A DNA stretch of 64,000 nt from an uncultured Verrucomicrobiae bacterium. Its GTDB lineage: Bacteria > Verrucomicrobiota > Verrucomicrobiia > Chthoniobacterales > UBA10450. Each line of letters opens with the position of its first letter. The first letter of the stretch is position 1. The stretch is taken from positions 672,001 to 736,000 of the forward strand of contig CAVSDR010000006.1 in the NCBI GenBank assembly GCA_963726745.1, read 5' to 3'. The notes beneath the pieces were generated by a model. It was not told the origin of the DNA. It ran no database searches and saw nothing but the letters and a program-made list of their open reading frames with translations. Position numbers and translations under genes: made by a program. Positions 1 to 61,996 of this stretch are shown here, piece by piece.

Positions 1-1722
1 AAGTGGCTTTCCGGCGGGCTCACCTTCGTTAACCTCGCCGTCTGCGCCGCGCTGCTGCTTGGCCTCGCCGCCGGCGGGTTAGGCAGCGGGATCGCACTCT
101 GCGCTGGTCTTGTCGGCCTCGGCGGAGCGGCCCTGGCTTTCTGGCGGACCGAAAGTGGCGAGGCCTCGGCAACAAATCGTTGCCTCGGATTTTGGCTGCT
201 GGCTGGCTGCTTCGGCTTTGTCGCCTTCCGTTCATTCTGCTGGCTTATCTTTAGCGACGGCACCGAGCTAAAGGTCCAATCGATTAATAACCTCGGCGAC
301 CTCTCGCTCCATCTCACCTACATCCGGAACTTTGCCAGCGGCGTCGCCTTGTGGCCGGAAAACCCGATCCACTTTGCCAGTCATCTCCGCTACCCGGCCG
401 GGACGGACCTGTTTAACTCCCTCCTGCTTCTCCTCGGGCTCGACCTCTATCATGGGCTCATCTGGGCCGGCCTGCTCGGGTCGCTGGCTACTTTCTATGC
501 GCTCCATCGCTGGGGCGGTAATTTCGCGATCGCCGGCTTTCTTTTTAACGGCGGCCTTGCCGGCTTGCAGTTCTTCCACAGTTGGAAACTGCTCGATTAC
601 CAGGGCGACAAGAGCGTTGCCTGGAAAAGCCTGCCGCTTTCCATGCTTGTGACCCAGCGCGGCCTGCTTTACGCGCTCCCCGCCGGTTTGCTGCTCCTGG
701 CGAGCTGGCGTTCCCGTTACGCGGAGGAAAAAAAGGCGCCGCTCCCCTTTTGGCTCGAGCTCTCGCTCTATGCCTCGATGCCACTTTTCCACATCCATAC
801 TTTCATGGCCTTAAGTATCGTGGCCGCCTGCTTGTTTGTCTTTGCGGAGCGCCCCTTGCGCCTCTACTTCGCGAAGCTGGTGGGGCTGGCTTTTCTCCCC
901 GCGACCTTCTTTGTCTGGACGATTACGGATCACTTCCAAGCCAGCTCGCTACTGACCTGGAAGCCGGGCTGGGTGCAGAACAATGGCGACTTCGCGATGC
1001 CTTTCCTTAAGTTCTGGCTGTTTAATTTCGGTCTCTGGCCGGTCTTCGTGTTTCTTCTCCTGGGTTTTTGTTTCTGGCAGGCCGGAAAAGCCAGGCGAGT
1101 AACTCCCAGCCTGGCTTTTCTCCTCCCGGCCAGCTTGCTGTTTATTTTCGCCTGGCTGGTGAAGACGGCGCCTTGGGAATGGGATAACATCAAAATCATC
1201 CTTTGGGCTTACCTGATCATGCTTCCTTTTCTTTGGCGGGAGTTGGTGGCCCGCTGGTCGATGCCGGTGCAAGTTGCTGTCTGTTTGGCGCTCTTTAGTT
1301 CCGGCGCGCTTTCCTTGCTTGGTGGTTTGGTCAGCAACCAAAGCGGTTTCGGTGTAGCTAACCGGGCCGAGCTCGACGCCGTCGGCGTAGTGGTGGCGAC
1401 GCTCCCGCCGGAAGCGCGCTTCGCGGCCTTCCCGACTTACAATCACCCGCTCCTGCTCCAGGGCCGGAAGGTGGTCCTGGGTTATCCCGGTCATCTCTGG
1501 ACCCAAGGCTTTGAGTATGGGCCGGCGATGGAGCAACTGAACGCGCTCATGCTGGGCGCACCCGGCTGGCGCGACACGGCCGGCAAGTTGCGCGTGCGTT
1601 ATCTCTTCTGGGGACGCGAAGAAAAGGCGAACTATGCCCGCAGCACCCGGCCTTGGGAACACGAGGCGACGTTAGTCGCAGAGGGCGACTGGGGCGCGAT
1701 CTACGATCTCGGCACTCGTTAG
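1..1722 (+). CDS. Polytopic membrane protein, GT-C-fold glycosyltransferase-like (5' truncated)
   Basis: Frame 1 is open from base 1 to TAG at 1720-1722. Many TM segments; NNLGDLSLH..YIRNF..WPENP loop; soluble C-terminal region with LGYPGHLW. Confidence 0.6.
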   Translation, partial: KWLSGGLTFVNLAVCAALLLGLAAGGLGSGIALCAGLVGLGGAALAFWRTESGEASATNRCLGFWLLAGCFGFVAFRSFCWLIFSDGTELKVQSINNLGDLSLHLTYIRNFASGVALWPENPIHFASHLRYPAGTDLFNSLLLLLGLDLYHGLIWAGLLGSLATFYALHRWGGNFAIAGFLFNGGLAGLQFFHSWKLLDYQGDKSVAWKSLPLSMLVTQRGLLYALPAGLLLLASWRSRYAEEKKAPLPFWLELSLYASMPLFHIHTFMALSIVAACLFVFAERPLRLYFAKLVGLAFLPATFFVWTITDHFQASSLLTWKPGWVQNNGDFAMPFLKFWLFNFGLWPVFVFLLLGFCFWQAGKARRVTPSLAFLLPASLLFIFAWLVKTAPWEWDNIKIILWAYLIMLPFLWRELVARWSMPVQVAVCLALFSSGALSLLGGLVSNQSGFGVANRAELDAVGVVVATLPPEARFAAFPTYNHPLLLQGRKVVLGYPGHLWTQGFEYGPAMEQLNALMLGAPGWRDTAGKLRVRYLFWGREEKANYARSTRPWEHEATLVAEGDWGAIYDLGTR

Positions 1723-2533
1723 GAGCGGACGCGTCGCCGGCGCCAGTTGGTCCGGGCCCAGGACGACTTGCCGCACCTTCAGCTTTTGCGCGACAAAGTA
1801 AGGCACGCCGCCGCCCGGGACAATGTCCTCCGCAGCGAGAAACACGATCAGCTTGCCTTCCCGGCCGTCGCTGCGATACCCGCGCACGATCTGCTCCGCG
1901 GCGAACTCTTGCCGGAGGAGTTGTGCGCGATAGGCCGCCGGCAGGTCGGGCTCACGGCCGGCCATCCGCTCTGCAAAAACCTGGTAGCCCTCGCGCGGCG
2001 TCTTGTAACCCGCGGGCAGAGAAGCCGCGCTCTTCACTCGTTAGGTTCTCGCCGCGCGCGACTTTTTCCCGCAGCGGTCCCGGCAAACCGAGCGCGAGCT
2101 GCGGCACCCCGGCAAGCTCGCGCAGGACTGCGCGGCAATGCTCGCGCGCCCGCCCGGTGCCGCCGACCTCCAGACGACTGACCAACTCGCCTCGCGCGCT
2201 CCCGTTACGTCCAGTCAGGTCGTCGAGCAGCGGCTGTTGCGTCGCGGCCACGCTCCCCCAGGCGATCACCAGCGGCAGGCCGCTCTGCTGCGCCGCTTCC
2301 ACCAGGAGGGCGGCAGGCTCTGCGCGGGCGCCGAAGACGGCGCGTTCCTGCGGGAAGTAGATAATGTCGGCTGCGCGCACGAGCGCGCTGTAATCGGTCG
2401 CAGCCGCAGGACCGCCGGCGTGCTCGATCGAGGAATGGCGCGGCAAAGGCGGCTGCGAGGAAAAAAGGGCGCACCCCCCGAAGGCGACGGCCAGGGTCGC
2501 AAGTAGCACTAGCCTAACGAGTCGTCTAGCCAC
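1672..2533 (-). CDS. Lipoprotein, possibly ChaN-like (frameshift near 2020)
   Basis: GTG at 2533 and lipobox AFGG-C. ORF 1952..2638 (ADIIYF.E) continues in ORF 1672..2037 (AAYRAQLLRQEFAAEQI..GGGVPYFV) after one extra base. Confidence 0.45.
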
Positions 2534-3344
2534 AGCGTTCCGGAAGGCGAATGGGCGGAGCGCAAGCCTCCGCGGAAGCAGCCGCGAACCGCCGGTGAGT
2601 TCGCCAGCCAGCCGCGAGAATGCGGCAGCCGATGGCAAAAGTGCGCCGCCAGTTCACCCCCGAGACCTTCTGCTCCCCGGCGCGGCGCGGACGCTCGGCG
2701 GCGTTCGTTTCCAAAATCCCCGCGCCCAGCCGCGCTGCGGCCACCTGGGCCTCGATCGTCCAGCCAAAGGTCATCTCGCGCGGGGCGATTCGCTCGAAGA
2801 GCGTCCGCTCAATCAAGCGCAACGGCGCGAGGTCGCTGAACCAGCGCCGCCCGAGCAAAGCCGCCCAAAGGCCCAAGGAAAAATTAGCCAGCACATGCGA
2901 CCAGCCCATGATTCGCCAATTCCTCCGCAAACGGGTGCGCGCGCCCAGGACAAGCGCGTAGCCCTGCTCCCACGCCCGGCTGAGCACGAGCACATCGGCC
3001 GGATCGCTGGCGCCATCACCGGCGAAAAAAACGTAAGCCCGCACGTCCGGCGCGACCGCCGCGAGCGCATCGATGGCCGCCTGGCAGCCGTGGCCATAGC
3101 CGCGCGCCGTGGTCTCGGCCACGACCACCGGATAACGCCGGGCGATTTCCGCGGTGCGATCGCAGGAAGCGTTCACACCCACGGCGACGATAAATTTCGG
3201 GGAAGCCAACGCGGTCAACAACTCCTCGAGGACGGCGCCGATGCAGGCCTCCTCGTTGCACGCCGGGATGACGATGGCGATGCGCGCTTCCTCCGCCGGG
3301 CGCGGGACGCGGCGAGCGGTCGGAAGCAGAATGGAGGAGTTCAC
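2526..3344 (-). CDS. GT2 family glycosyltransferase
   Basis: IVIPACNEE, GYGHGC, DGASDP, FGWTIE and R..GEQKVSG motifs. Confidence 0.85.
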   Translation of the reverse strand: MNSSILLPTARRVPRPAEEARIAIVIPACNEEACIGAVLEELLTALASPKFIVAVGVNASCDRTAEIARRYPVVVAETTARGYGHGCQAAIDALAAVAPDVRAYVFFAGDGASDPADVLVLSRAWEQGYALVLGARTRLRRNWRIMGWSHVLANFSLGLWAALLGRRWFSDLAPLRLIERTLFERIAPREMTFGWTIEAQVAAARLGAGILETNAAERPRRAGEQKVSGVNWRRTFAIGCRILAAGWRTHRRFAAASAEACAPPIRLPERCG

Positions 3345-3391
3345 CGGGAAAGTGTTACGGATGAGCGAAGGGGCGGGTTACCCTTCTTCTA

Positions 3392-3811
3392 TCACCGAGC
3401 GAGCGCCAAGACCAACTGCCCTTCGGCCACCGGCACGCCCTCGACCGAGGCGCGCACGGAAAACTGCCGCAGCTCGCCCATGGTCCCGATCTGTTCCGCG
3501 CGCAGCGCGATGACTTCTGCGGGGCGCGCCGCGCGGTGGAATTTCATCCCGCGAATCGCCGAGAGCAGGAAAAGCGGCCGCGCATTCTCCGGAAAACCGG
3601 AGGCCGCGGTGATGCCGGCTATTTGCGCCAGCGCCTCGGTCAAGATCACGCCCGGGACGAGCGGGTTGCCCGGGAAATGCCCGGCAAACATCGGGTCGCC
3701 CGCGTCAAACCAGGTCGCGCCCTCGGCCCACACGCCGGCCTCGAGGGCGCGCAACTCGCGCACGAAAACGAAGGGCGGCCGATGCGGCAGGCCAAGAAAT
3801 TCCGCCTCCAC
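3392..3811 (-). CDS. fabZ: 3-hydroxyacyl-ACP dehydratase, FabZ/FabA family
   Basis: LPHRPPFVFV and FAGHFPGNPLVPGVILTEALAQ hot-dog motifs. Confidence 0.85.
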   Translation of the reverse strand: MEAEFLGLPHRPPFVFVRELRALEAGVWAEGATWFDAGDPMFAGHFPGNPLVPGVILTEALAQIAGITAASGFPENARPLFLLSAIRGMKFHRAARPAEVIALRAEQIGTMGELRQFSVRASVEGVPVAEGQLVLALAR

Positions 3812-3812
3812 C

Positions 3813-4277
3813 TCAACCGTTCACGAAGTAAGCAAACTTCCAGCTGCCGTTGACCCGCCGGATGCCGGCGCGGTAGCCGGTGTAATCGACCGTGGGATTC
3901 GCGAATTGCGCGGGTGCGACCATGTAATCGCCCTTGGTCACGAAATTTTCCGTGATGATGCCCTCGAGCTCCGGCCAGAGGCCGTTCTCATCCCAATAGC
4001 GGAAGACGCCGTCGCCTTTGCGATCGGCCTCCGGGGTATCGCCCATGACGAAGGCAAAATCTTCCGTCATCATCGAGGCGATCGTGTGCACGTCGTGCGC
4101 CTCGATCGCCTTTCGCAAGCGCCCGAGGAAAGCATTGAAGTCCTGGTCCGCGGTCGGCTGGGCGGGTTGCTCTTTCTTGGTCTGGGCCGGCTCTTTTTTC
4201 TCCTTCTTCCCCCCGGAGCTTTTACAGCCGGCGAGGAAGACCGCGGAGAGGAGCAAGGAAAGAGCGAGGCGTTTCAT
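3813..4277 (-). CDS. Lipoprotein of unknown function (NTF2-like)
   Basis: MKRLALSLLLSAVFLAG-C lipobox; ends RRVNGSWKFAYFVNG. Confidence 0.7.
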   Translation of the reverse strand: MKRLALSLLLSAVFLAGCKSSGGKKEKKEPAQTKKEQPAQPTADQDFNAFLGRLRKAIEAHDVHTIASMMTEDFAFVMGDTPEADRKGDGVFRYWDENGLWPELEGIITENFVTKGDYMVAPAQFANPTVDYTGYRAGIRRVNGSWKFAYFVNG

Positions 4278-4312
4278 GTCGCGACAACGTCTTGCAGGTT
4301 CCCCCGGTGGAT

Positions 4313-5071
4313 TCAAGGCTGGCGTGCGCGCGCGCCTCCGTGCTGGTGACCGCCATGGCGCCGCTTTTGCAGCGGATGGCCGATGAAGATGAAATACATC
4401 GTCTTGAAGAGATCGCGGAAACTGCACGCTGGACTCGTTAGGCGACCCTCGCCCCGGCGCAGTGCGGCGAAGATATTCTCCGCGGTCAGCGCCGGCGGAC
4501 GCGGGATGCTGGTGTAGTGGTGGCCAAAGGCGCTCAATTGATGCGCATCGGACGTCGCCAGAAGTGGTCGGCTAAATTCTGCGGCAATCCGTCGCGCCGG
4601 GCGGTTACGATCGAACCAGCCCTTGTGGAAATGGCAGATCTCGATCGCATCGAAGCAATCGATCTGGGCCCGCAGGCGCGCCCCGCCGATGGAGCCGCCC
4701 ATGACGTAAAAGGGGTGCGGCGCGAAGGTAAAGAGCGAGTCCCCGCGCGCCGCGCGCAACCGGCGCAGATCGTCGAAGTCGTGCAGCCCCGCCGCTTCGG
4801 CCGCGGTCACGTTGAGCAGCACCACGTCCGCCCCGCGCAGCCGCATTTCCGCCGCCGGGATCAACAGGATGCCCATGGCCGCGGCATCGGCGAAGACTTC
4901 CGCCCGGTCGAAGACCGAGTCATGCAGGGTAATAGCCAGCACTTTGATCCCGAGCGCCCGCGCGCGCTCGAGCAATTGATGCGCGGTGTAGTCGAGGAAA
5001 TCCTTGGTGTCGTCGAGCGTATGGATGTGCAGGTCGAGCTTGATCGACTCTGGTTCCGGCGGCGGCGACAT
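4313..5071 (-). CDS. PHP-domain metal-dependent phosphoesterase
   Basis: DLHIHT, AITLHD, PHPF and TSDAH motifs. Confidence 0.85.
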   Translation of the reverse strand: MSPPPEPESIKLDLHIHTLDDTKDFLDYTAHQLLERARALGIKVLAITLHDSVFDRAEVFADAAAMGILLIPAAEMRLRGADVVLLNVTAAEAAGLHDFDDLRRLRAARGDSLFTFAPHPFYVMGGSIGGARLRAQIDCFDAIEICHFHKGWFDRNRPARRIAAEFSRPLLATSDAHQLSAFGHHYTSIPRPPALTAENIFAALRRGEGRLTSPACSFRDLFKTMYFIFIGHPLQKRRHGGHQHGGARARQP

Positions 5072-5256
5072 GGACCACGATGAAAGCAGACCAGAGGCCA
5101 TTCAACCCGCGGAGACCGGTTAAGAATTTTCGCGGCCGGCTGTTCCAGGCTTGACCCGGAACAACACCTTCAAGTAGGCCATCTCCTCGTCACTACCCCC
5201 GCCGCGGCTGGCGCTGCGGCTGGGCGCCCCCTCCTCCTCCTAACTCCGCCCCCCTT

Positions 5257-7848
5257 ATGAAGCTCTTTTCCTTGCACCCGCGGTGTGTCCTGCCTGCGGC
5301 TTCGCTCCTCGTTCTGGTCTTCTTTTTGCAACCCGAGGCTCGCGCGCAGCGCGAGACGCGCTCGAGTGCCTCCGCCGCCGGCGCGCAGGTCGGCGTGCCC
5401 GAAGCCGGCGCCGTCGCGATCAGCGCCACCACGGCCGAGATCATGGCCAACCCCAAAGCCACCGCCCCGCGCGACATCCAGTGGATCAAGCGCGAGCGCG
5501 ATGTCCCCGGCCGGGAGAATCGCCCGCCGCATCCCGCGGCCCAGCCAGTCTCGGGTTACCCGGAGGCCAGCGCTCCGGCCGAGCCGCTCCGCCGCGCGCT
5601 CCAGGTGGACGCTCCCCAAGCTGTCGGCACCAACTTTGCCGGCGCCACCCTGGCCGAGACCTTTTCCGTTCCGCCCGATTCCATGGGCGCGGTCGGCCCT
5701 TCGCAATTTGTCGTCTTCGTGAACGGCCGTCTCCGCACCTTCAACAAAAACACCGGCACGCCGGACGGCGTGCTCAATGCCAATCCCGACGTCTTTTTCG
5801 CCCCGGTCATGACCCCGGTGGTTTCGCCGGTTCTGCAAAACTTCACCAGCGATCCGCAGGTGCGCTACGATCGCCTCTCCCAGCGGTGGTTCCTCATCAT
5901 CATCGATGTCCCCTGCACCGACGCCTCCTGCGTCAGCACCGCGCCCAACCGCGTCCTCGTGGCTGTCTCCGATGCGGCCAGCGCGGGCGTGCTCAGCAAC
6001 ACCACCGTCTGGTCGTATTTCTATGCGCAACAGGACACCGTCGGCGGGGCGAATACGAATGAGTTCCTCGATTATCCCTCGCTGGGCGTGGACAAGAACG
6101 CGCTCTACATCGGCGGGAACATGTTTGACGCCACCGGCGGCACCTTCAACGGCTGCTCCGTTTTCGTTGTCCGGAAAAGTTCGATCCTGGGGGCGGGTCC
6201 GATCGTCACGACGGCTTTCCGCGGGGTGGTCCCTTCTCCAAGCTCCGACGGCCCTTACTCCCCGCGCGGGGTGGACAACTACGACCCCAGCGCCACGGAG
6301 GGATACTTCATCGGCGTCAGCAATGCGTTTAGCGGCAGCCTCATTCTTCGTCGCATTACCAATCCCGCAGGCACGCCGACGATCTCGGCGAATATCCCTT
6401 TCGCCGTTTCCAGCACTGCGGCTCCCATCCCGGTGGCTCACCTCGGCAATACGGGAGGCAATAACGGCCGACTCGATGCCCTCGACGATCGCCTTTACGC
6501 GGCCCACATCCGCAATGGCCGCCTCTGGACGGCGCACAGCATCGCCGTTGCCGCCACAGGCGTAGCTTCGGGCACCAACAGCGCCCGCCGCACCGCGGTG
6601 CGCTGGTATGAGTTGAATGTCCCAGCCACCACCGGCACGCCCACCGTAGTCCAGTCCGGCACGGTCTTTGACAGCGCCAGCACCGTCGCGGCCGCACGCC
6701 AGTTTTGGATCCCTACGATTATGGTTTCGGGGCAAGGCCACGCCGCCCTCGGCTTCAGCACCGCGGGCACGCCAAACTACGCCAACGGCGCCGCCAACGG
6801 GCGCCTCAAGAACGACACTCTCGGCACGCTCGGCGCCTTTAGCCTGATCAGCGCCAGCTCCACGGCCTACAATCCAGCGAGCGATCCCGGCGGCACCTCC
6901 GGCCGGCGCTGGGGCGATTACTCCTACACCAGTCTCGATCCGAACGACGACATGACCATGTGGACCATTCAGGAGTATTGCGACAATACGAACTCCTACG
7001 CCGTCCGCGTCGCCCGCTTGCTGGCCCCGCCCCCCGCGACTCCGGCTTCCACCAATAGCAGTGTGCCGCCTAACCAGTCCTCCACCAGCGTCGTGCTCAC
7101 CGGCACCTCCACCGCCGGCTCCGGCTTCTTCGATCCCGGCTCCGGTTTTGCCAGCCACATCAACGTCACCGTCAGCGGCGGCGTCGTCGTGAATTCCATC
7201 ACCTACACCGACCCGACCCACCTGACGCTCAACCTCGACACCACCGGCGCCACCACTGGCGCGAAGAACGTCACCGTGACCAATCCCGACGGCCAGGCGC
7301 TCACCGGAAACGGCATTCTCACCGTGGGCAATCCGCTTGTCCTCACCAGCGCGGCCTCCCGCCTGACCCACCAGAATGGCGGCGGCGATTTCGACATCGT
7401 CTTGCCCCTCAGCGGGACCGCCGGGGTCGAGCCGCGTAATGGCAACGGCAGCTACCTCCTCGTGCTGACCTTTGACCATCCGATCAGTGCCGGCAGTGCC
7501 GCCGTCACTTCCGGGACAGGCACCGCTGGAGCCATCACTTTTAGCGGCAATGAAATGCGGATTCCGCTCACCGGCGTGACCGATCAGCAAGAAACCACCG
7601 TTACCGCCACCAACGTCAGCGGACCGGGCACCATCACCCTCGCTTCCACCGTCGTGAAGGTGGGCTTCCTCATCGGCGATGCCAATACCGACCGGATGAT
7701 CAACTCGGGCGATGCCATCGTGACCCGCAACCGCTCCTCGGCCGCCCTCGATGCCAATACCTGCAAGTCAGATGTGAACCTCGACGGCCTGATCAACACC
7801 GGCGATACCATCATCGTGCGCAACCGGGCGGGTAACGCCCTGCCTTAG
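5257..7848 (+). CDS. Secreted beta-rich protein with Ig/IPT-like domain and C-terminal dockerin-like module
   Basis: Signal peptide; PPDSMGAVGP, DPQVRYD, DYPSLG and RWGDYS motifs; VTVTNPDGQ; paired Ca-loops GDANTDRMINSGD and SDVNLDGLINTGD. Confidence 0.75.
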   Translation: MKLFSLHPRCVLPAASLLVLVFFLQPEARAQRETRSSASAAGAQVGVPEAGAVAISATTAEIMANPKATAPRDIQWIKRERDVPGRENRPPHPAAQPVSGYPEASAPAEPLRRALQVDAPQAVGTNFAGATLAETFSVPPDSMGAVGPSQFVVFVNGRLRTFNKNTGTPDGVLNANPDVFFAPVMTPVVSPVLQNFTSDPQVRYDRLSQRWFLIIIDVPCTDASCVSTAPNRVLVAVSDAASAGVLSNTTVWSYFYAQQDTVGGANTNEFLDYPSLGVDKNALYIGGNMFDATGGTFNGCSVFVVRKSSILGAGPIVTTAFRGVVPSPSSDGPYSPRGVDNYDPSATEGYFIGVSNAFSGSLILRRITNPAGTPTISANIPFAVSSTAAPIPVAHLGNTGGNNGRLDALDDRLYAAHIRNGRLWTAHSIAVAATGVASGTNSARRTAVRWYELNVPATTGTPTVVQSGTVFDSASTVAAARQFWIPTIMVSGQGHAALGFSTAGTPNYANGAANGRLKNDTLGTLGAFSLISASSTAYNPASDPGGTSGRRWGDYSYTSLDPNDDMTMWTIQEYCDNTNSYAVRVARLLAPPPATPASTNSSVPPNQSSTSVVLTGTSTAGSGFFDPGSGFASHINVTVSGGVVVNSITYTDPTHLTLNLDTTGATTGAKNVTVTNPDGQALTGNGILTVGNPLVLTSAASRLTHQNGGGDFDIVLPLSGTAGVEPRNGNGSYLLVLTFDHPISAGSAAVTSGTGTAGAITFSGNEMRIPLTGVTDQQETTVTATNVSGPGTITLASTVVKVGFLIGDANTDRMINSGDAIVTRNRSSAALDANTCKSDVNLDGLINTGDTIIVRNRAGNALP

Positions 7849-7863
7849 CGCAATTTTTTTCAC

Positions 7864-7907
7864 CGCCCGCCGGGTCGCGCCTGGGGCGCCGCACGGCGGG
7901 CGTTTTT
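7864..7907 (+). terminator. Rho-independent terminator
   Basis: CGCCCGCCG...CGGCGGGCG stem followed by TTTTT, between convergent genes. Confidence 0.6.
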
Positions 7908-7913
7908 GTTTCG

Positions 7914-8447
7914 TTAGGCGCCGGGCGCGCTTTTCTTCGCCGCCTCCAGGATCATCTGGCGGAAGGCGTCGCCGGCGGCTTTCACCGTCGCCGCCGGGCC
8001 GGTCAGCTTCACGTAAACATCGCCGCCCGCATCCTCCAGGATCGCGCCGCGGAGCGCGTAGTCGGCCATCGGTTGCGTCGGACCGCCCGGCATCCCGCTG
8101 CTAAAAGTTCCCTCGGTGGTCGCGAAGGTCACCTTTACCGCGCCCACCTGAACCATCTCGGTTTTTTGTTTCGCTTCACTCCCGGCGAATTGGCCAAACC
8201 AGCGCTGGACGTTATCCGTCGCCGTCCCGCTCCCGCCGCCAAAGTGAAAGAAAGTCACGTCCGCCTTGGCCGCGTCCTGGCCCACTGCGAGCTGCGCGTT
8301 CCGCATCGGCGAACTCGGCTCCACTTTTTGCCAGCCCTCCGGCACGGCGAAGGTGAACGCCGCCACCTTGAAAGACTCGCCCGCGTGCAGCGGCGCCGCG
8401 GCGAGCAGGAAATGAAAGGCCAGCAAGGCGAGGAATCGTGAGCTCAT
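7914..8447 (-). CDS. Secreted hypothetical protein
   Basis: ATG 8447, signal peptide ending LHA; VPEGW..SPMR..GG..DNVQRWFGQF..VYVKLTGP. Confidence 0.7.
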   Translation of the reverse strand: MSSRFLALLAFHFLLAAAPLHAGESFKVAAFTFAVPEGWQKVEPSSPMRNAQLAVGQDAAKADVTFFHFGGGSGTATDNVQRWFGQFAGSEAKQKTEMVQVGAVKVTFATTEGTFSSGMPGGPTQPMADYALRGAILEDAGGDVYVKLTGPAATVKAAGDAFRQMILEAAKKSAPGA

Positions 8448-8567
8448 GCAGGACCTTGCCGCAACTGCTGCGCCCCGTCCAAGGCCGCAAAAAACAAAAC
8501 GCCGGCTCTCTTGCTTTCTCGTGTTGCTGACTAAATTGGAGGCCGCGCAAAACTCTGCGCCCACTCC

Positions 8568-8647
8568 GCTCGGGTGGTGAAATGGCAGACACGTACGTTT
8601 GAGGGGCGTATGCCGCAAGGCATGGGGGTTCAAGTCCCCCCCGAGCA
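8568..8647 (+). tRNA. tRNA-Leu(GAG)
   Basis: Acceptor GCTCGGG/CCCGAGC; anticodon arm TACGT-TTGAGGG-GCGTA; long variable arm; GGTTCAAGTCC T-arm; CCA not encoded. Confidence 0.95.
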
Positions 8648-8670
8648 CTTCTTTGCGCGGCGTTCCGCGC

Positions 8671-9211: not shown

Positions 9212-9274
9212 CCCGCCAACGCGCCGCAAGCCCCTTGCGCGCGGGCGCGGCGAAGGGGAAGGGAAATTGCCGCC

Positions 9275-10033: not shown

Positions 10034-10042
10034 GGTGCAGCT

Positions 10043-50772: not shown

Positions 50773-50773
50773 A

Positions 50774-51412: not shown

Positions 51413-51554
51413 AGATTTAATGAAGCTCGACTTGATAGGGAGCATGGGTGATTCGCATCGCGCGGTCAAGCGTGCCGTCTCGATCAAGCCATCCTTTCGT
51501 TGCACGGTTCAATCAGCCCCGCGCGTTGCTCGAGAAGATCGTGGCCCAGCGAGA

Positions 51555-52301: not shown

Positions 52302-52440
52302 ATGCTGATACCCGATTGCCGCTGCTGTAATGCCGAGTTTGCGAAAGACCGTCAACGAAATTTCCGATGTTCTTTCCACCAGCACTCAAGAGGTGGCCGA
52401 TAGCGCTTCCCCCGACGCACGGCCGCTGTAAACTAACCCC

Positions 52441-53460
52441 ATGGAATCCTTCACCCTCGTGGGCGGTGCGATCATTGCGATCCTCGTCTTCGTTTTCGTC
52501 ATCATCCTTTTCAACTTCTTTGGCCTCTGGCTGCGCGCCAAGATCGCCAACGCTCCGGTCAGCCTCGGCAAAATGATCGGCATGCGCCTCCGAAAAGTGC
52601 CCGTCGGCTTGATCGTCGATAACCGCATTACCGCGGTCAAAGCCGGGATCGATGTCCCGAGCGATCCGCTCGAGGCGCACTACCTCGCGGGCGGCGATGT
52701 CGGGCATGTGATCCTGGCCCTGATTGCGGCCGACAAGGCGGGCATCTCGCTCGATTTCAACCGCGCCTGCGCGATCGACCTCGCGACCAAGGGCACCGGC
52801 AAAACCGTCCTCGAGGCGGTGCGCACGAGCATCAATCCTAAGGTGATCGATTGCCCGAACCCGGCGATGGGTCGTCCGACAATCGATGGCGTGGCGCAGG
52901 ATGGCATCGGCGTGAAGGTGAAAGCGCGCGTCACCGTGCGCTCGCACCTGGACCGCTTCGTCGGCGGTGCGACCGAGGAGACGATCATTGCGCGCGTCGG
53001 CGAGGGCATCGTCAGTTCGATCGGCTCGGCTCCGTCCTATAAGGAGGTGCTGGAAAATCCCGACCGCATCTCGAAGACCGTCCTCGCCAAGGGCCTCGAT
53101 AGCGGGACCGCCTTTGAAATTCTCTCGATCGACATTGCCGACGTCGACGTGGGCGAAAACATCGGCGCGAAACTCCAGGCCGAGCAGGCCGATGCCGACA
53201 AGCGTGTCGCCCAGGCGAAAGCCGAAGTGCGCCGCGCCGCCGCGGTCGCGGTCGAGCAGGAAATGCGCGCCAAGACCCAGGAGCAGCGCGCCAAGGTGGT
53301 GGAAGCCGAGGCGCAGGTGCCGCTGGCGATGGCCGACGCCTTCCGCTCGGGGAACTTCGGGATCATGGACTACGTGCGGATGAAAAATGTCCAGGCCGAT
53401 ACGAACATGCGGGAAAACATCGCCACCGGCGAAAAAACGCGCACCGAATCGCAGAATTAG
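52441..53460 (+). CDS. floA: Flotillin-like protein FloA (YqfA)
   Basis: [50 protein letters not shown] motifs. Confidence 0.93.
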
Positions 53461-53492
53461 CCGGCAACTTCTCCCGCGCCTAACGAGTCCTC

Positions 53493-54102
53493 ATGGAGCA
53501 AATCTTCTTCATCGCCCTGGTCGCGATCGTCGGCCTGGTGCGCTGGCTGGCGCAGAACGCCGAGAACAAAAGGAACGAGGCCCAGGCCACGAAGGAAAAG
53601 CCCGCCTCGGCCGCGCCCCTCGCCCGGCCCGCGGGCCAAACCGAGGAAGAGCGCGTGCGCAAATTCTTCGAGGCGCTCGGCGTTCCGCCTACCTCCGCGC
53701 CCCCGGCGCAGCCGTCGCGCCGCCGCGAGATCAAGCCGCAGGTGCAGCCGGCTGCCGAAACGCCGCTTCCAGCCGATCGATCCCTTTCCGGTCCCGCGCA
53801 CCGCTGCCGTCCCGCGCCCGGTCGTCGTCGTTCCCACCCCGTTCCCGGCGCCGATCGCCGCGGATTTGCCGAAAGCCGCCCGCGCTCCCTTGGCCCCTGC
53901 CATCTTTGAGGTGCGCGAGAGCGACGAGGTCGAAGCCGAAACTCACCGTTCCACCCCCACGGTTGCGCGGCCAGTCCGCGCGGCCCAGAGCTGGACCGAT
54001 CGCCTGGCGACCCCTGCCGGCCTGCGCGATGCCATCGTCCTGCGCGAGATCTTCGGCCCGCCGCGCAGCCTCCAGTCGCTCGACGGCCACTCGTTAGGCT
54101 AA
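53493..54102 (+). CDS. Membrane-anchored Pro/Ala-rich floA companion (YqfB-like), frameshifted
   Basis: N-terminal TM; C-terminal LRDAIVLREIFGPPRSL in a second frame. Confidence 0.6.
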
Positions 54103-54106
54103 ATCG

Positions 54107-56314
54107 CTAGAGCGCGCGCACGCGGATACGCACCTCCCGGCGTTGGCCGGTCTTGGTGTCGGTCACGCTCAGCCGGTGCTCGCCCTCTTCGCCGAGGGCA
54201 AAGTCGCGGCCGTTTTCGTTCGTTAGGCGGAGCGAGGCGCTCTCCCAGCGCACGGCTTCCCCGCCGCTGGCCCCGAGCGGAATCCGCCGGCTCGAAGGCA
54301 CGTCGGGATCGAGCAGGTAAACCGCGTCTGGCAACGGCGAGACGATCCGAAATTCCTCGCCCAGCACCGCGCGCGCCCCCAGGAAATTCTCCGCACTCGC
54401 AAACCAGTCCGCATAATCAGCCGGCAACTTCACCCGCCCGCCCGCGTCGTAATCTTCCGCCGCCGCCAGCCCTGGCCGTTGCCCGGCGACGAATTTTTCC
54501 CGCACCCCACCGGCCGCGTTTTCCGCGAGCACCTTGCCGGTCAAAGGATCGATCTGCCGCTCGACCAAACCCGCCGGCGGCGCATACCAGCTCGTCCCGC
54601 GCTCCGCGTGCAATTTCTCGAAGATCGCATGCAGGATCGGCCCGGCGCCGGTCACCCCGGAGACCTCGTGCATCGGCGCGCCGTCGAAATTTCCCACCCA
54701 CACGCCGACGGTGAACTCCGGGGTGTAGCCGATCGCCCAGTTATCGCGAAAGTCGGTGCTCGTGCCGGTTTTGCAGGCTACCGGAAAATCGAAGCGCAGC
54801 GCCGAGTGAATCCCAAACGAGAGCGTGCGCGCGGCATTGTCGCTCAAGATGTCGGCTATTTGCCAGGCGAGCTCTGGCCGGGTGTAGCGCCGCGTAAACG
54901 TGGGCGCATCCGCCCGCAGGCGCCACGGCCGGTACTCGCCCAGGCGCGCCAGGCTGGCGTAAGCATTCGCGATTTCGAGCAGCCGGCCCTCGCAATTTCC
55001 CAGGGTCAGACCCAGTCCGTAAACCTCCGGCGCTTGCTCCAGACTCGTTAGGCCAACGGCTTGCAAGCGCGCCGCCAGCGCCGCCGGACCGCCGTTGGCT
55101 TGCAGCACTTTGACCGCCGGAATGTTCAGCGAACTGGCCAGCGCCGTCCGGTAAGTCACCGGCCCGTAACAACGGCGGTTGTAATTTTCTGGCCGATAAA
55201 AACCACCCGCTGCCGGGAAGCTGGCGCGCACGTCGGCCACGATCGTCGCCGGGGTCGCGCCCCGCTCGAGCGCGAGCAGATAAGTGAACGGCTTGAGCGT
55301 TGAGCCCGCGGAGCGCTTCGCCCAGGCGCCGTTCACCTGCCCGCTCCCGGGCGCGAAGTAGTCCGCCGAGCCGACGAGCGCGAGCACATCGCCACTGGCA
55401 TTGTCGAGCACGACCGCGGCGCCGTTGCGCACGTTTTGCTCGCGCAATTGCGCCAGCCGTTCCTGCAGGAGACGCTCGATCGCTTCGTTCAGCGGCAGGT
55501 CGAGCGTGGTCCGCACTTCGCCCGCGCCGGCCTCGAGCGGCTGGTTCAACAACAGGTCGGTGAAATGCGGCGCGCGGAAGCGGCGCCGCGGCGGGCGCAG
55601 GTGCAGCGGTTCCGCGGCCGCCATCTGCCAGCGCTCCCGAGACAGCCAGCCGTTCTCGTGCATCCGGCGCAGCACAAGTTGCTGTCTCTTTTGCGCGGCC
55701 GGAAGCGCGCGCTGCGGGTTGAGCTTGCGCGGATTCCGCGGCAAGCCGGCGAGGAGCGCGGCTTCCGCTTCGCTCAGGTCGCTCACGGGTTTGCCGAAGT
55801 AATAATCCGCCGCCGCGGCCAGGCCGAGGTTGAGATTGCCGAAGTCGACCCGGTTCAGGTAGGCGGCGAGGATTTGCTCCTTCGACCAGACTTGCTCGAG
55901 CCGGAGCGCGGTCAGCGCCTCGACTACTTTAGCCAGCAACGTGCGCGGGCGGCGCTGGCTAATTTTCACTAGCTGCTGCGTGATCGTCGACGCGCCGGAG
56001 GTGATGTGGCCGTGGGTGAGACCATTCGCAAGGGCGCGCGCCGTCGCCAGCCCGTCGACCCCGTGATGCGCGAAAAAGCGCTTGTCCTCGGCCGCGATGA
56101 TCGCCCGGACCACGTGCGCCGGGAGATCGGCCGCGGTGAGTTCGCGCCGGAAATGCTCCTCCGTGCGCGCCTCGCGCAGCGGCAGCCCGTTTCGATCCAG
56201 CAGCACCGTGCTCGCCCGCGGCGGCGCGACCAAAGCCGCCGGCAGCGGGAGGAAGCGCAGCGCCAGCCAGCAGGAGAGCGGCAGGACGAGCGTGCCCAGG
56301 AGAAGCCGCTTCAT
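54107..56314 (-). CDS. pbpC: Penicillin-binding protein 1C
   Basis: EDKRFF.H.GVD, SGASTITQQ, S.LK, SLN and KTGTS motifs; ATG overlaps the A2M stop (ATGA). Confidence 0.92.
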   Translation of the reverse strand: MKRLLLGTLVLPLSCWLALRFLPLPAALVAPPRASTVLLDRNGLPLREARTEEHFRRELTAADLPAHVVRAIIAAEDKRFFAHHGVDGLATARALANGLTHGHITSGASTITQQLVKISQRRPRTLLAKVVEALTALRLEQVWSKEQILAAYLNRVDFGNLNLGLAAAADYYFGKPVSDLSEAEAALLAGLPRNPRKLNPQRALPAAQKRQQLVLRRMHENGWLSRERWQMAAAEPLHLRPPRRRFRAPHFTDLLLNQPLEAGAGEVRTTLDLPLNEAIERLLQERLAQLREQNVRNGAAVVLDNASGDVLALVGSADYFAPGSGQVNGAWAKRSAGSTLKPFTYLLALERGATPATIVADVRASFPAAGGFYRPENYNRRCYGPVTYRTALASSLNIPAVKVLQANGGPAALAARLQAVGLTSLEQAPEVYGLGLTLGNCEGRLLEIANAYASLARLGEYRPWRLRADAPTFTRRYTRPELAWQIADILSDNAARTLSFGIHSALRFDFPVACKTGTSTDFRDNWAIGYTPEFTVGVWVGNFDGAPMHEVSGVTGAGPILHAIFEKLHAERGTSWYAPPAGLVERQIDPLTGKVLAENAAGGVREKFVAGQRPGLAAAEDYDAGGRVKLPADYADWFASAENFLGARAVLGEEFRIVSPLPDAVYLLDPDVPSSRRIPLGASGGEAVRWESASLRLTNENGRDFALGEEGEHRLSVTDTKTGQRREVRIRVRAL

Positions 56315-59300
56315 CGCAGCCCCTGCGCGGAGACACGCTCGGTAGCCGTCGTCCCGAAGCGTTCCGGATGATACATCTCCTCGATCTTCGCCGCGGGCGC
56401 GAGCGCTTCGCCGGCGCAGACGACGCGCGCGAGGTAGCGCAGGGTGTAGCGACCCGGCCGGAGGACATCGGCAAAAAAGACTGCGCGATCCGTCGCGCAG
56501 CTCGGAGTAATCGCTGACCCACTCCGTGCCTAACGACTCGCCGGCGAGCGTCTCCTGCGACTTGAAGGCCGGGTTGATCGGCGCGAGCACGCTCGGCAGC
56601 GGATCCTCCAGTGCGAGGAAAGTCGCGCGCCGGCGCGCCTCCACCTCCAGGGTCACGAGAATGCGGTCGCCCACCCGCAGGTTTTCCGCCGGGCTCAATT
56701 TCCCGTCGGCGCCGATCTTCGCGTAACGTCTCGTTAGGCCATAGCCCTGGTCCTGGCGCGGCTGCTCCGCCAGCTTCGAACGCGCGGTGACCGTGGTTTC
56801 CGCATAAACTTTCCCGCCGTGACGCGTGATCATCAACGGTTGCGCAGAGCGCTGGCCTTCCAGCGGAAAGGTTAGGCTCACCCTGATCCTTTCCTGGTCG
56901 AGTTCGTAGGCGGCACTGGCGCCCGGCCAGCGCACTTCGCCGCTGGCTTCGCGCGGGCCGGTCTCGACCAGCCGCAGATAATTAGCCAGCGAGATCAGCG
57001 CCCAGGCATTGCTTTGCGTGGTCCCCCAGTGGCCGTTTTCCCGGCGGGTAAAAAGCTCGAGCGCGAGCTGGTCGACCCGCGGCGACTTTGGCGCGTGCCG
57101 CGTCCAGGCGAGCAACTGGAGCGCGTGCTCGCGCGTGACCGAACCGAACCATTGCTCGACGTAGCCTGCATCGGTCGCCGGGCCGCGGAGCAATTCCTCG
57201 ATCATCGACCGCGGGCCCTTCGCCTCGATCACCGCGAGCGCGACCAAGGCGCGATCTTCCGCGCTCAACTGCGCGCGCTTTTGAAAGAGCAAATCGTGAT
57301 ACGCCGGCTCCGCCTTGCCCGCGAGCGCGAGCGCATAGACCGCGAGGCAGCGATCCGACAAGCCGTAGCCGCTGCGCTCGCGCGCGGTCCCGCGGAGCTG
57401 CTCGCTCAGGTAGCGTTGCAACCGCGCGAACTCCGCCTCCGGCACCGCGAAGCCTTGCTGCTGCGCAAGGGTGAAGGCAATCGCTCCGTAGGCGCTGCCC
57501 CAAAGCATCGGCTCGCGGCCTCGCGGCCAATAGCTCAGGCCGCCGCTGCTGGTCTGCATCGAGAGCAGCAGACGCAGGCCGCCATTGACCGCCTCCGCGA
57601 TTTCGCCCTCCGGCCGGTTCGAGCTCCCGGAACATCCTCGCCCAGGTCGCGGACCGTGAGCCACGGGAGCAAACTCGAGGTCGTCTGCTCGACGCACCCG
57701 TAGGGATAATGGAGCAGCTGCCGCACGGCCTCGCCGAGATTGAGCACGCGCGTGCTCGCAAGATTCACCGTGACCTCGCCGTGGCCTTCGAGGATTTGGC
57801 CATTGGTGATCCGAAGCAGCTCAGCCGACTCTTTTTCCACGCGCTGCGTCTCGACCTGGCGGATGAGCGGCGCAGGATCACCCACCTGCACGATCGCTTC
57901 CACCGCGTCCAGGTTGTCGGCTAATTTCACCGCCCACTTCCAGTGCGCCTCGCCCGGTGCCCACGATCTCCACCGGGAAATCCACCGCGACCGAGCCACC
58001 CGCGGGCAGGTCGAGCTCGCGCCGCGTTTCGCCGGTGGCGCGCGCGGTTTCGTCGAGAAAGAGCTGCACCTCGGCCTTCCCGCCGACAGCAGTGGTGTTG
58101 TGCGCAACCGCGCGGAGCGTGAGCCGGTCGCCTTTATTAGCGAAGGCCGGCAGCGCGCTCTCGATCATGACCGGCTTGTTGATCTCGAAGGCCGACTGCG
58201 CGCTGCCAAACGCCCCCGCGCGCGTGACCGCCACCGCGACCAGCCGATATCTCGTTAGGCTATCGGGCGCGGCGAACTCTGCCCGCACCTTGCCCTGCGC
58301 ATCGGTGCGCAGGGTGGCGTTCCAAAACGGGCAGGCGACGAAGTTTTTCCGGAGGCCATTCAGCAAGGCCGGGCCGCCCTTGCCGTCGCCCACGAGGTAG
58401 CCCTTGTTCGCGAAATCTGCTTCCGCCATGTCCTCGCGCAGGAGCGTTGGCAGCGTCAAATTCGTGCTCACGCCGAGGCCGCGCGGCTGATTGAAAAACG
58501 CCAGCGGGTCGGGTGTTTCGTAGCCGGTCAGGCTGAGCACGCCTTCATCCACCGCATAGAGCGTGACCTCCGCATCGGCCGCGATTTGCCCGCGCCAATC
58601 GCGCACTTCCGCCTCCACTTGCACCGGGTCGTTAGGCCGTGCGCTCGGCGCACGCGGCTTGCACCGTGACCGTAAGTTGGTCGTCCGGCCGCGCGACCTT
58701 CAAGCTGGCGTAGCCGATGCGATACTCCGGCACTTTCATTTTGCGCGGGCTCTCCTCGGCTCCGCGCAGGAGCAGCACCGAGACGAAGACATTCGGAGCG
58801 TCGGTCGCGAGGATCGGCACCTGCACGGAAGGAGCGTTGCCCGTGAGGCGAACAACGAAAGAGCGCAGCACCTGGTCGCGTTCCACGGTCACCAGCGCAT
58901 CGCCGGCGATCGGAGTTTTAACCAGCAAGTTGGCGGTTTCGCCCGGCGCGTAGGTGTCCTTGTCGGAGACTAAATCGATCACGTAGGGGTTGCGATAATT
59001 CCAGTCGGTCTCCGCTTCACCCGAGACCTCGAAGACGAGCGAGGTCAACACCGGCCGGCCGCCGGCATCCTGCGCGCTCACCTCGAGGAGATACTCGCCC
59101 GGCGGACCCGCGAGCGCGTCGGCCAGCGCCGCGGTCTTCGGCTTGCGGTCCTCGCCCCGGCCGGGCGCGGTCAGGAGCTCGTGCTCCCAAAGTTTCTCGA
59201 GCTGCGGGGTGCTTTCGAATTCGCTCGTGTCGCCGGCGGTTGCGAGCCGGTTGGTCTGCCAGCGAATGCGCGAGACGCGCACGTTCGCCTTCGCCGGCTG

Positions 59301-61996
59301 GTCGAGGGTCTGGCCATCCGGGCGGAGCGCGATCACCTCGAGCGGAAGCGGCGCGCCTTCCGTGAGCACGGCGTCGAAGCGCCGCACGCCGAGGTAAAAC
59401 TCCGAGGCGTGCTGGGTAAATTGGCGCGCCTCCGAAACCGTCTGCTGATTCTGGTCGGTCACTTCCACGAACAGCCTGGCCGCGCGCGGCTGCGGCGCTT
59501 TCGCATTCACCGGCAGCGGCGTCTGCACGAGCGCGACGCCGTGGGCATCGATCGCCACTTCACCCTGCGCATTGAATTGCGCGAGCTTGTCGAGCGCGCG
59601 GTTGAAGCGGTAATCGGCGATCGCGTTGCCGAAGGCAAAGTCGCCCAGGCCTTCCGGCGCGAAAGTCTCGTCGCGCGCGACCAGCGACCAGCTCAGCCGG
59701 GCCTGCGAGAGCGGCTGGCCCATGTAGTACTTCGAGGTCACGGGGAGCGCGAGCGCAGTGCTGCCTAACGAGTCGGGCGGCTTCGGGATCACGACCTCGA
59801 AGGCGTTCGGCTTGTATTCCTGCACCTGGAAAGAACAGGAGCCGCCGAGCCGCGTTTCCTTTTCGCCCACGGCCGCGACCTGAAATTTCCCGAGCGTGCC
59901 CGCAGGCACGGTGAACTCGAGCTCGAAGGAGCCGAAGTCCGAGAGCGTGACCGTGCTCGAGTGAATCTGCCGGTCCTTCGCGTCGTTGATCGTGACCGTG
60001 ACCGGCTTCCCCGCGGGGATGCGCTGCTGACCGCTACGGAGGTCCTGCGCGTAGCCCTTGAGGTGCAATTTGTCGCCTGGCTTGTAGACCCCGCGTTCGG
60101 TGAAAAGAAAAATCGTCTGGAGGAAGCGGCCTTCCTCGAAGTCGTTGATCCCTTGGTCGTAAACGCCCAGCCGGTAGAGCGGAATTTCGCCGGAGTAGAC
60201 TGGGATCACGTGCGTGTCGTCGCCGGCGGAAACGGAAAACCAACGAGGCTTTTCCGTCGGCGGCAGGTGCGCCTGGCCCTGCGCGTCGCTCGTGCTTTGC
60301 GCCACCGGAGCGGCCTCGGCATCGAGCAAGGCGACCGTCGCCTTCGCCAGCGCCTGTCCTGTCGCGAGCGAGAAAAGATGGAGCGTGTAGCCGCCGCGAT
60401 CGCGCTTCCAGGCCGCGCCGATGTCGGTCAATTGCATCAGCGTCTGCGTGCCCACGCGCTTGCCGGTGGCGGTCACCGGGTCGACCGATTCCGCGGTGAA
60501 GAGAATCGTCCCGGTGCGGCCCGCGCCGATTTCGTCCCACTTCAATTCCACCACCTGCTGGGTATCGACCGCGCCGCCGGGCGTGAACTCCTGTTGCCAG
60601 ATCAGCTCTCCCGGCAAAGCCTCCGCGTCGACCCGCGAGTAATACTCGTCCGACGCGTCTTCCGGCGGCTTGTTGTAGTCGTCGAAAGCCTTAAGCGCCG
60701 CGGCGATCTGCGGACCGCGGAAGAGCCGCGCAGTCACGCGCACCCGCGGGACATTCACCGAGACCAGGCGGAGCAAACGCGAACCGCCGGCACGCTGGTG
60801 GCCATCGAACTCGGGAAAATAAAGGCGCGCCTCGTAGGGCTGGAAGCTGAACTCGCGGGTGAAAGCGCTGGCTAATTCTGCCGGCTCGGCCGCAGGCATC
60901 CCGGCAGCGACGGTTACGCGATAGGTCGCGCCGAGGGCGAAATCGCCGCTCGCAGTCACGCTGCTGTCGTCGCGCGTCAGCTTGAGCTTCGGCACCGTCG
61001 GCTCGACCTGGACCCAGCGCGCGAGATTCTCGCGCGTGACGTCGTCCGCCAGCGTCTTGGTGAAATCAATCCGCAAGCGCCGGCCGGCGACGCGGTTTCC
61101 TTCCGCGGCCACGGCGCTGATCGCGAATGGCTGCACCTCCCCCACTTCGATGCGTTTCGGCGCGGGCAATTTTGCCGGCCACTCGGCCGCGGGCAGGCCG
61201 GCGTCGATCACTAGATGCCATGCTTTCCCCGGCGGGAGCGGTTTCGCTGGGCGCACCAGGAGAAGATTGCCGCGCGGCGGCGCTGGCTTCTCGGCGTCGG
61301 GCACCAGCGGCTCGCCGTTTTCGTCGAAGTCGTTGGCCGCTTCCTCGGGCTGCAGCTCTGCGGTCCAGGAGCCTAACGAGTTATCGTCGCTCTCCGAGCG
61401 CGCGAAGAGGCGCGTGCTTTTCGCGTCTGCGGCCTGCTCGACCTGCGCCTCGACCCGCTGGTGCGCCGCGTCCTCGAAATGGAAGAAGCCCGCCGCCGCG
61501 CCCGCCTGCACCCCGGCGTTAAACAGGACGGCGAGGCGCGGACGCATCGACGCGTTCGCCGGGTCGAAGCCGCCCAAGTGGGTCACTCCCTTGACCCGGA
61601 GCGGCGGCGTCTCCGCGCTTTCGCGAAACTTCGCGCCCACCTCGCGGCCGGCGAGGTCGCGGAGATTTTTTGCCAGCGAGATCTGGAATTTCGTCCCCAG
61701 CGGAAGGACGCCGGCGGGGGCGAAGGAACCGCTGCGCGTGCTCAGCCAGGTGAAGTCGCCGGCGACCGGCGGTTCGAAAAGCGAGCGGCGACGGGGCGGC
61801 CGATTTTGCCGACCTCCTCCGGGCGCACCATCTCGCTGCCAAAACGGACCTCGAAAGTGCTGCGGGGCTCGAGCGTGCGCGAGGGCAGGAGGAGTTGCGC
61901 CGAGGGCGCCTGGGCCAGCAATCCTTCGCCTAACGAGAGGAGAAGGCCGAGCGAGAGAAGAGAGAAAGAGCGCAAGCGGGAGCGATTAGGCGACAA
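56311..61996 (-). CDS. Bacterial alpha-2-macroglobulin, multiple frameshifts
   Basis: FTERGVYKPGD, YAVDEGVL.LT, PDSLTRY, thioester motif YPYGCVEQ, WGTTQSNA, EEMYHPE; directly upstream of pbpC. Confidence 0.88.

Follow-up and report, generated by a model that had tools for sequence, protein, structure and literature searches.

Highly iterated words in a family of Chthoniobacterales: candidate DNA-uptake tags and a match to the ends of integron attC sites

Two iterated words in the window and in the genome

The stretch of DNA analysed here (hereafter the window) comprises 64,000 nt of the genome of an uncultured member of the Verrucomicrobiae (GCA_963726745.1, contig CAVSDR010000006.1, positions 672,001–736,000) and is strewn with copies of two short words. 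The first, motif A (GCCTAACGA), occurs 25 times (15 copies on the plus and 10 on the minus strand), where 0.37 copies would be expected by chance, with a maximum of 2 in 100 dinucleotide shuffles. The second, motif B (pattern SAWNNNGYYGNCTAW, full form approximately SAWNKYGYYGGCTAWWW), occurs 24 times against a chance expectation of 0.44. In the following, G000 denotes this genome and C1–C6 etc. its contigs; other G numbers denote compared genomes.

An earlier note, made from the window sequence alone, had described the first of these words as a candidate uptake sequence. Its counts proved correct (27 CCTAACGA, 15 on the plus and 12 on the minus strand; 25 GCCTAACGA; 12 CCTAACGAGT; five further CTAACGA), as did four of its five core-only positions, the fifth being 38129 rather than 38130. 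Its chance expectation of about 0.4 copies was borne out, although the GC content of the window is 63% and not the assumed 65% or so. Its picture of a single motif was incomplete, as it missed both the equally abundant motif B and the identity of motif A with an attC core (see below). The copies are placed as follows.

Starts 2512, 8676, 9858, 13330, 13755, 14926, 29819, 30391, 30653, 42456, 53478, 56528, 59763, 61371, 61928 (plus strand): motif A GCCTAACGA, 15 copies spanning 2512..61936
Low coordinates 4435, 7911, 11856, 31685, 54091, 54220, 55045, 56731, 58252, 58629 (minus strand): motif A GCCTAACGA, 10 copies spanning 4435..58637
1716–1723 and 2038–2045 (minus strand): two copies of CCTAACGA without the first G
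10981 (plus), 13922 (plus), 31421 (minus), 38129 (plus), 63916 (minus): five core-only CTAACGA copies spanning 10981..63922
15000..29800 (no strand): motif-A-free gap of 14.9 kb over genes for large secreted proteins, among the longest CTAACGA-free stretches of the genome
4561, 9820, 14251, 17337, 19540, 28580, 36952, 37276, 40840, 42806, 50758, 54845, 60861, 62217 (plus strand): motif B SAWNNNGYYGNCTAW, 14 of the 24 copies, which span 79..62231
Low coordinates 79, 4932, 13935, 22910, 24491, 34048, 38267, 48841, 53457, 56982 (minus strand): motif B SAWNNNGYYGNCTAW, the other 10 of the 24 copies

Genome-wide, GCCTAACGA occurs 1,312 times in 3.41 Mb, is present on all seven contigs at densities of 324–531 per Mb and ranks second in frequency among 9-mer pairs; motif B occurs 1,641 times. 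Markov models of orders 2 and 4 predict 16 and 84 copies of GCCTAACGA, respectively, whereas models of orders 6–7 predict 1,213–1,300, the excess disappearing there because the word feeds its own sub-words into the model. A shuffle that preserves the proteins is the fair null for this word: the genes, called with a simple program written for this analysis rather than taken from curated annotation, hold 965 copies, compared with 8–17 in five synonymous shuffles (proteins fixed, codons shuffled). The genome-wide enrichment foreseen in the earlier note is thus present. Of the words sampled, one soil sequencing run contained a tenth; the contigs from it span portions of the window, derive in part from relatives and hold no information on methylation or expression.

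Anatomy, reading frames, polarity and spacing of motif A

A profile of the flanks shows a near-invariant CTAACRA core with outer bases graded over about 14 bp, weak preferences beginning about 4 bases upstream of CTAACGA and ending 11 bases past its start. These preferences remain after correction for codon position and are also seen in intergenic and gene-edge copies; beyond about 14 bp the flanks are unrelated. Of the copies, approximately 73% are intragenic, 14% fall between genes and 13% touch stop codons. Inside genes, the word is mostly read as SLG (447 copies), LTx or PNx, and also as LVR, the same set of frames that had been listed before. The tripeptide SLG occurs 764 times, compared with 419–575 times for its permutations, and the 447 copies written as motif A are among these; CTAACGA also makes up 310 of the 1,335 CTA and 671 of the 2,895 TTA codons. 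Stop codons account for 157 sense and 123 antisense copies, where 10.6 are expected; this excess fits motif A supplying TAA or TAG. There is no 3' bias in the position of the motif within genes. Stop codon usage is nearly equal (TAG 1,084, TGA 1,059, TAA 904), which is odd for a genome with 64% GC, and part of its TAA and TAG stops is supplied by motifs A and B.

Motif A shows no strand polarity of the Chi or FtsK orienting polar sequence (KOPS) type, in agreement with the earlier description: 617 copies lie on the leading and 661 on the lagging strand (48% leading, p=0.23), whereas a KOPS-like control in the same genome, GGGNAGGG, has 250 leading and 70 lagging copies (78%). Copies of motif A avoid each other irrespective of orientation. 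In an analysis of distances up to 3 kb, the ratio of observed to expected pairs was 0.34 below 75 bp and rose to 1 at 300–450 bp. Within single genes there are 17 pairs closer than 100 bp (55 expected) and 48 closer than 200 bp (105 expected). In six other A-rich samples, 14 pairs closer than 100 bp were found against 24 expected. No such avoidance is seen between motifs A and B. At the other extreme, motif A gaps of 11–25 kb occur in the genome.

Origin, upkeep and distribution over gene classes

Codon alignments of two genes of the window with 6 and 10 relatives, respectively, show motif A gained and lost by substitution, with no indels, and sites that several species share. Two positions in these alignments illustrate the behaviour of the two words.

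55045..55053 (minus strand): copy of motif A within a gene resembling that of penicillin-binding protein 1C; all seven aligned genomes of the genus keep CTAACGA and its rare CTA leucine codon, and nearby silent sites vary
55929..55937 (minus strand): motif B core; G000 reads RTLLAKV against RTWRTK in five of the six aligned relatives, the word being placed where residues differ

Among 674 orthologue pairs from 25 genomes, A-rich relatives had an identical CTAACGA at 24 of the 35 sites with the same residues (28% for random 7-mers); it was identical at 13 of 56 in relatives of low or middle density (26% for random 7-mers) and at none of 11 in G059, a genome of the family that is essentially A-less. 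Rare leucine codons were kept at 23 of 55 sites within motif A, compared with 9 of 107 outside it. In G059, none of 27 sites was kept. Words A and B both lie at more divergent residues (0.31–0.42 vs 0.24–0.28), as has been reported for the DNA uptake sequences (DUS) of Neisseriaceae (PMC2397512). The codon alignments, the synonymous shuffles and the conservation at orthologous sites therefore agree with the original proposal that it is the DNA, rather than the protein, that is constrained.

The word is unevenly distributed over gene classes. There are no copies in 16S rRNA or rpoC; genes with a third-position GC content (GC3) of 0.6–0.7 carry 0.24 copies per kb, compared with 0.65 per kb; and the motif is also scarce in low-GC windows, ribosomal-protein genes, polysaccharide clusters and large secreted proteins. 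Accessory status was judged here by GC3, GC and gene type rather than from a pangenome. The same pattern of scarcity is shown by the uptake signal sequences (USS) of Pasteurellaceae (PMC7811141; PMC2817400).

Taxonomic range of the words

The nearest relatives of the host's XerD carry the labels Candidatus Udaeobacter, Chthoniobacterales or Verrucomicrobiae, which places the host in the Chthoniobacterales and upholds the verrucomicrobial origin suggested earlier; we take UBA10450 to be the name of its family in GTDB. The reversed word is commoner than background, which makes it a poor null, and genomes from outside the family were therefore used as the baseline. In a draw of 250 genomes of the family, GCCTAACGA was present in all, in 13 to 4,633 copies, the density ranging from 4 to 1,350 per Mb, i.e. 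more than 100-fold. After removal of attC copies, 91 of the 94 tabulated published genomes have at least 20 copies per Mb, the exceptions being G059, G068 and G073. By comparison, 16 genomes from 15 other families of the order carry 1–19 copies. In a 200-genome draw of the class, genomes from outside the family had at most 15 copies, with one exception at 75. Within its class, motif A is restricted to one family of Chthoniobacterales. The tallies for the order, the family, motif B, motif C and attC include the unpublished genomes G001, G008, G045, G155, G208, G243 and G277; no claim depends on those alone. The exception, G454, belongs to another family of the class, and its 75 copies are strand-balanced; they could reflect large cassette arrays or a weak expansion.

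The eight-base core of the word reappears in a second phylum. Among 11 genomes of Gemmatimonadota, one member of the Gemmatimonadaceae carries 1,006 copies of GCCTAACG (control, 92), in which the word is exactly eight bases long; one genome carries 177 and the nine others carry 5–74. A scan of viral contigs for paired words, an insensitive method, gave 11 loci and no A-dense virus, L199 being an attC array with two further copies. A full-text literature search found no paper on an iterated word in Chthoniobacterales; most subscription journals and supplements were outside its scope, and supplementary oligomer surveys could list one.

Motif B is private to the host species, with 5–103 copies in 60 other genomes and 9–119 in 33 genomes of the host's genus. 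It too is non-polar (50% on the leading strand), occupies coding frames and lies at residues that differ from those of relatives; convergent pairs closer than 25 bp are 1.8-fold enriched. De novo scanning of G044 revealed a third word, motif C (WTGTCGATCTT, which contains GATC), of which G062 has as many as 4,514 copies, alongside 1,803 of motif A. Among the 94 tabulated genomes, half of the genera (15 of 30) have a median motif C density of 30 per Mb or more, and motifs A and C are both dense in 17 genomes. De novo scans of 31–106 kb from 23 relatives yielded no further dispersed word; rare words would escape such scans. Several candidates were rejected: a B-like word in G015 and G018 is enriched at most about twofold and is not established; the AACGCC runs of G000, like the private-motif candidates in G056, G041 and G068, proved to be tandem repeats, genes for repeat proteins or clusters resembling repetitive extragenic palindromes; and the CTAACCA variant in G053 is attC. 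Tandem 6–8-base repeats of the AACGCC and CTCAAC types are found at G000 C1:5129, C3:82899, C3:731715, C4:146750, C6:313692 and C6:1027521 and in G056 (L023), and are very dense in G068 (L229–L230).

Match between motif A and integron attC sites

Just beyond the end of the window lies a cassette array (G000 C6:736572-744900) with about 12 attC sites of 119–127 bp, for which no integrase was found in the genome; scattered attC sites are also present on C3 and C4. The attC sites of the array end in the reverse complement of RYCTAACGAG, and, judged by sequence, motif A corresponds to the 3' core of the family's attC sites, the next two bases included. Of 151 family genomes, 138 contain this attC class. 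Its range exceeds that of the iterated word, because it also occurs in the A-less G059 and in another family; both G059 and G028 have the class and do not carry the word in iterated form. In Gemmatimonadota, the attC sites of another genome end in the same eight bases as GCCTAACG. The attC core has the seven-base consensus GTTRRRY; we estimate that about 0.4% of random 8-mers would contain it, so that the match of motif A is unlikely, yet possible, by chance. Within the core, the triplet AAC/GTT is reported as conserved (PMC4889954).

The R'' and R' boxes of attC sites are paired 45–130 bp apart in cassette arrays. Of 28 candidate R''/R' pairs in the genome, about 12 are true attC sites and none includes a GCCTAACGA of the window; some 17 of the 1,312 motif A copies can be linked to attC, leaving about 99% without an attC hairpin. 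The density of attC does not correlate with that of motif A (rho 0.10, n=94).

Uptake machinery and candidate readers

The genome encodes intact ComEC, DprA, ComF and ComM, together with pilMNOPQ, three secretins, ten PilB/PilT-type ATPases, several pilins and several minor-pilin operons. The search for uptake genes that had been proposed thus returned the full set apart from ComEA; motif-free genomes have the same genes, whose presence does not follow that of the word. Two paralogous three-gene minor-pilin operons (G000 C6:623578-626130 and C3:584422-586933) end in a PilX-like DUF7305 protein, the two being 30% identical; such operons are patchy in the family, and no solved structural relative of the protein was found. 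The pairing of two operons with two motifs made them attractive as readers; they were rejected, as they do not track motif A and have 68–71% identical orthologues in genomes with little or no motif B. In DUS and USS systems the surface receptor that recognizes the sequence is ComP or, as a prediction, ComN/PpdA; queries with PpdA and PpdB of Escherichia coli had no match in the genome. No receptor was found among the candidates compared. ComEC, the PilX-like operon, AddB, methylases, XerCD and integrase all fail to track motif A. In G061, a secreted protein read from its sequence as thermonuclease-like is fused to a ComEA-type helix–hairpin–helix (L059:814-1680); the G000 copy (C4:17230-17874) is without that domain.

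Interpretation of the iterated words

Two families of Proteobacteria have established uptake tags that are recognized by their sequence. The reading that we prefer, and to which we give about an even chance, is that motifs A, B and C are tags of this kind, resembling DUS and USS, spread by molecular drive and recognized by several readers. Motif A would be a self-tag of the lineage, read in double-stranded DNA by a sequence-specific protein of an uptake route comprising the type IV pilus, ComEC, DprA and ComM. Fragments carrying the word would enter and recombine more often, and point mutations that create it would therefore spread by drive wherever the protein tolerates them. Motif B, in the host species, and motif C, in about half of the family's genera, would be extra tags stacked on motif A, with readers of their own. 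Biased uptake combined with homologous recombination would explain the observed substitution origin of the word, its effects on frames and tripeptides, its scarcity in constrained and accessory DNA, its lack of polarity and its turnover between lineages. If one site per fragment suffices, the short-range exclusion seen in G000 is explained as well, and separate readers then follow from the independence of A and B. In USS-based uptake, a second site within 100 bp adds no uptake (PMC7811141), which fits the exclusion seen for motif A.

The likeness to the known systems is considerable. As described for the USS of Pasteurellaceae, motif A has a nine-base core with weaker flanks, occurs on both strands about once per 1–3 kb, arises by point mutation, shows frame bias and enriched tripeptides, and is scarce in rRNA and in constrained and newly acquired genes (PMC7811141; PMC2817400; PMC12616744). 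It differs in phylum and sequence, in the depletion of close pairs, in the presence of a second unrelated word and in the lack of a receptor candidate. Like the DUS of Neisseriaceae, it is a word conserved where the core genome is permissive, with lineage-specific forms (PMC2397512). Here, however, inverted terminator pairs of motif A show no excess, and motifs B and C coexist with A and are not replacing dialects.

Several findings speak against an uptake function. No ComEA orthologue was found in G000, and comEC is present in 60 of 61 genomes, including all 15 from outside the family and the A-less G059; being near-universal, the machinery does not discriminate the motif-bearing genomes. Of 55 family genomes, 24 yielded the candidate tip-pilin operon (PilX-like, DUF7305); it was not found in several of the A-richest and is present in G059. 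The spacing rule is not general: in 60 kb of the densest genome, G083, there are 20 pairs closer than 50 bp against 10 expected, and motif C in G044 shows no shortfall below 100 bp (9 vs 9). Close pairs of motif A are depleted in G000, whereas 23% of Haemophilus influenzae USS lie within 100 bp of another (PMC7811141), and DUS form terminator pairs (PMC2397512), whereas only three inverted pairs within 60 bp occur among the 1,312 sites of motif A. Neither two unrelated tags in one genome nor one word shared across phyla is described in the passages on DUS and USS consulted, and a literature search found no member of the family shown to be transformable. By analogy, motif A would work like DUS and USS; we do not assign it as a member of either class, because the terminator-pair feature is missing, and because competence, uptake bias and receptors are what we infer.

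A further step, which we regard as rather improbable, would connect the tags to the attC match. A receptor tuned to the attC end would take up cassettes preferentially from DNA in the environment, drive would have spread the core over the chromosome in two phyla (independently or by transfer of the reader), and further receptors would have added B as a species tag and C as a clade tag, giving a layered code by which kin are recognized. This is consistent with the attC-end match in the family, with the iteration of the same 8-mer in a Gemmatimonadaceae genome and with the report that natural transformation feeds cassettes to integrons (PMC12614218). Against it, the density of motif A is not predicted by that of attC, and the ninth base of the attC sites in another Gemmatimonadota genome has no counterpart in the word of the Gemmatimonadaceae genome. 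As compared with the R' core of integron attC sites, motif A is the reverse complement of the family's attC end, and the core also ends attC sites in Gemmatimonadota, but about 99% of its copies are without a hairpin, no integrase was found and attC number is not predictive.

Among the explanations that dispense with uptake, the one to be taken most seriously, if still doubtful, is that motif A is bound inside the cell by a DNA-binding protein, a nucleoid organizer or a counterpart of whatever reads the highly iterated palindrome HIP1, with selection for one site every few hundred bases. This protein might have a binding domain of the tyrosine-recombinase type, which would account for the match to the attC 3' core. 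In favour are this match, in the family and in Gemmatimonadota arrays, and the iteration of the same 8-mer in a second phylum; a nucleoprotein footprint could underlie the exclusion between copies of the same motif, which reaches about 300 bp, and with HIP1 there is already a selected word for which an architectural role has been proposed (PMC5861425). These points have to be set against the gaps of 11–25 kb, the more than 100-fold range of densities and the existence of a family genome without an iterated word. The genome has only XerC and XerD. An integrase as present-day reader was sought by family search, tblastn and a profile of three relatives, and neither an integron integrase nor a stand-alone piece of one was found in the genome, whereas the A-less G059 has an integrase; nor do the densities of attC and motif A go together. 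A Xer half-site was likewise rejected, since the best dif candidate, at C5:120896 and 12 bp from the GC-skew peak, resembles neither A nor B. That dif-like 11-6-11 site (C5:120896-120923) has arms unlike the E. coli type, and a similar right arm is found at G044 C4:90099. A reading of the copies as scars left behind by integron cassettes or some other insertion draws on the same identity with the attC 3' end and on the presence of this attC class in 138 of 151 family genomes, and is very improbable: only about 17 of the 1,312 copies are attC-linked, the flanks are unrelated beyond some 14 bp, the same class occurs without an iterated word in G059 and G028, and the codon alignments, with in-frame gains and no indels, largely refute it.

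A Chi-like signal that promotes recombination through the AddAB helicase-nuclease is improbable. The genome has an AddAB-type pair, as do 28 of 39 family genomes, and Chi is reported to be enriched in core genomes, with non-polarized candidates in Vibrio (bioRxiv 10.1101/2020.08.13.249359). Motif A resembles Chi and KOPS as a non-palindromic word enriched in core DNA but has no replichore polarity (48% leading for A and 50% for B, compared with 78% for GGGNAGGG). No RecB or RecC is present in G000, and AddB does not track the word, occurring in the A-less G059 and not being found, with the query used, in the A-rich G061, G192 and G042. Two independent words in one genome would, moreover, require two readers. 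The AddB/AddA-like pair of G000 (C3:775709-781854) is typical of the family, its addA being fragmented in the assembly, possibly by sequencing errors; G061 carries RecB/RecD-like genes in its place. Comparably small is the chance that the word is a methylation target, either made by methyl-directed repair, as in a model for HIP, or read as a methyl mark in uptake. Alternative HIPs follow alternative methylases (PMC4390886), motif C contains GATC, and Campylobacter has a methylation-based variant of uptake, C. jejuni discriminating DNA by its methylation (PMC12378983). The option of a modification site, also raised in the earlier note, is weakened by the non-palindromic form and graded 14-bp profile of motif A, and by the distribution of methylases, which does not follow that of the word: in five genomes tested, N4/N6 methylases are present in all, the A-less G059 included, and 5-methylcytosine and type I enzymes in three each. 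The most depleted 4-mer, GTAC, lies outside motif A. HIP1 of cyanobacteria is likewise a hyper-abundant selected word with alternative words in some lineages (PMC4390886; PMC5861425); motif A differs in not being palindromic and in having no methylase that tracks it. Genome-wide, GTAC is found at 0.16 and CTAG at 0.28 of expectation. One N4/N6 methylase, of the family present in all five genomes, is encoded at L177:1477-2223 with no nuclease seen alongside.

If the words are uptake tags, they would form a third such system, with a new architecture (at least three words, two per genome and more than 100-fold variation between genera), and recombination in this uncultured group of soil bacteria would have to be frequent and biased towards kin. 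The family offers 250 genomes in which readers could be sought by co-occurrence and drive weighed against selection. Should the attC link be causal, the specificity of uptake would be tied to the pool of integron cassettes. Independently of any mechanism, they are strong markers of lineage, of use in binning and in dating the acquisition of DNA.

Other observations

Positions 54107-61640 of the window hold genes for a bacterial alpha-2-macroglobulin and a penicillin-binding protein 1C (PBP1C). The C-terminal domain of the macroglobulin is in frame with PBP1C, which suggests a frameshift or an assembly error. Near-identical runs of genes at G000 C1:104-7099 and C6:1021147-1029481 probably represent an assembly overlap.

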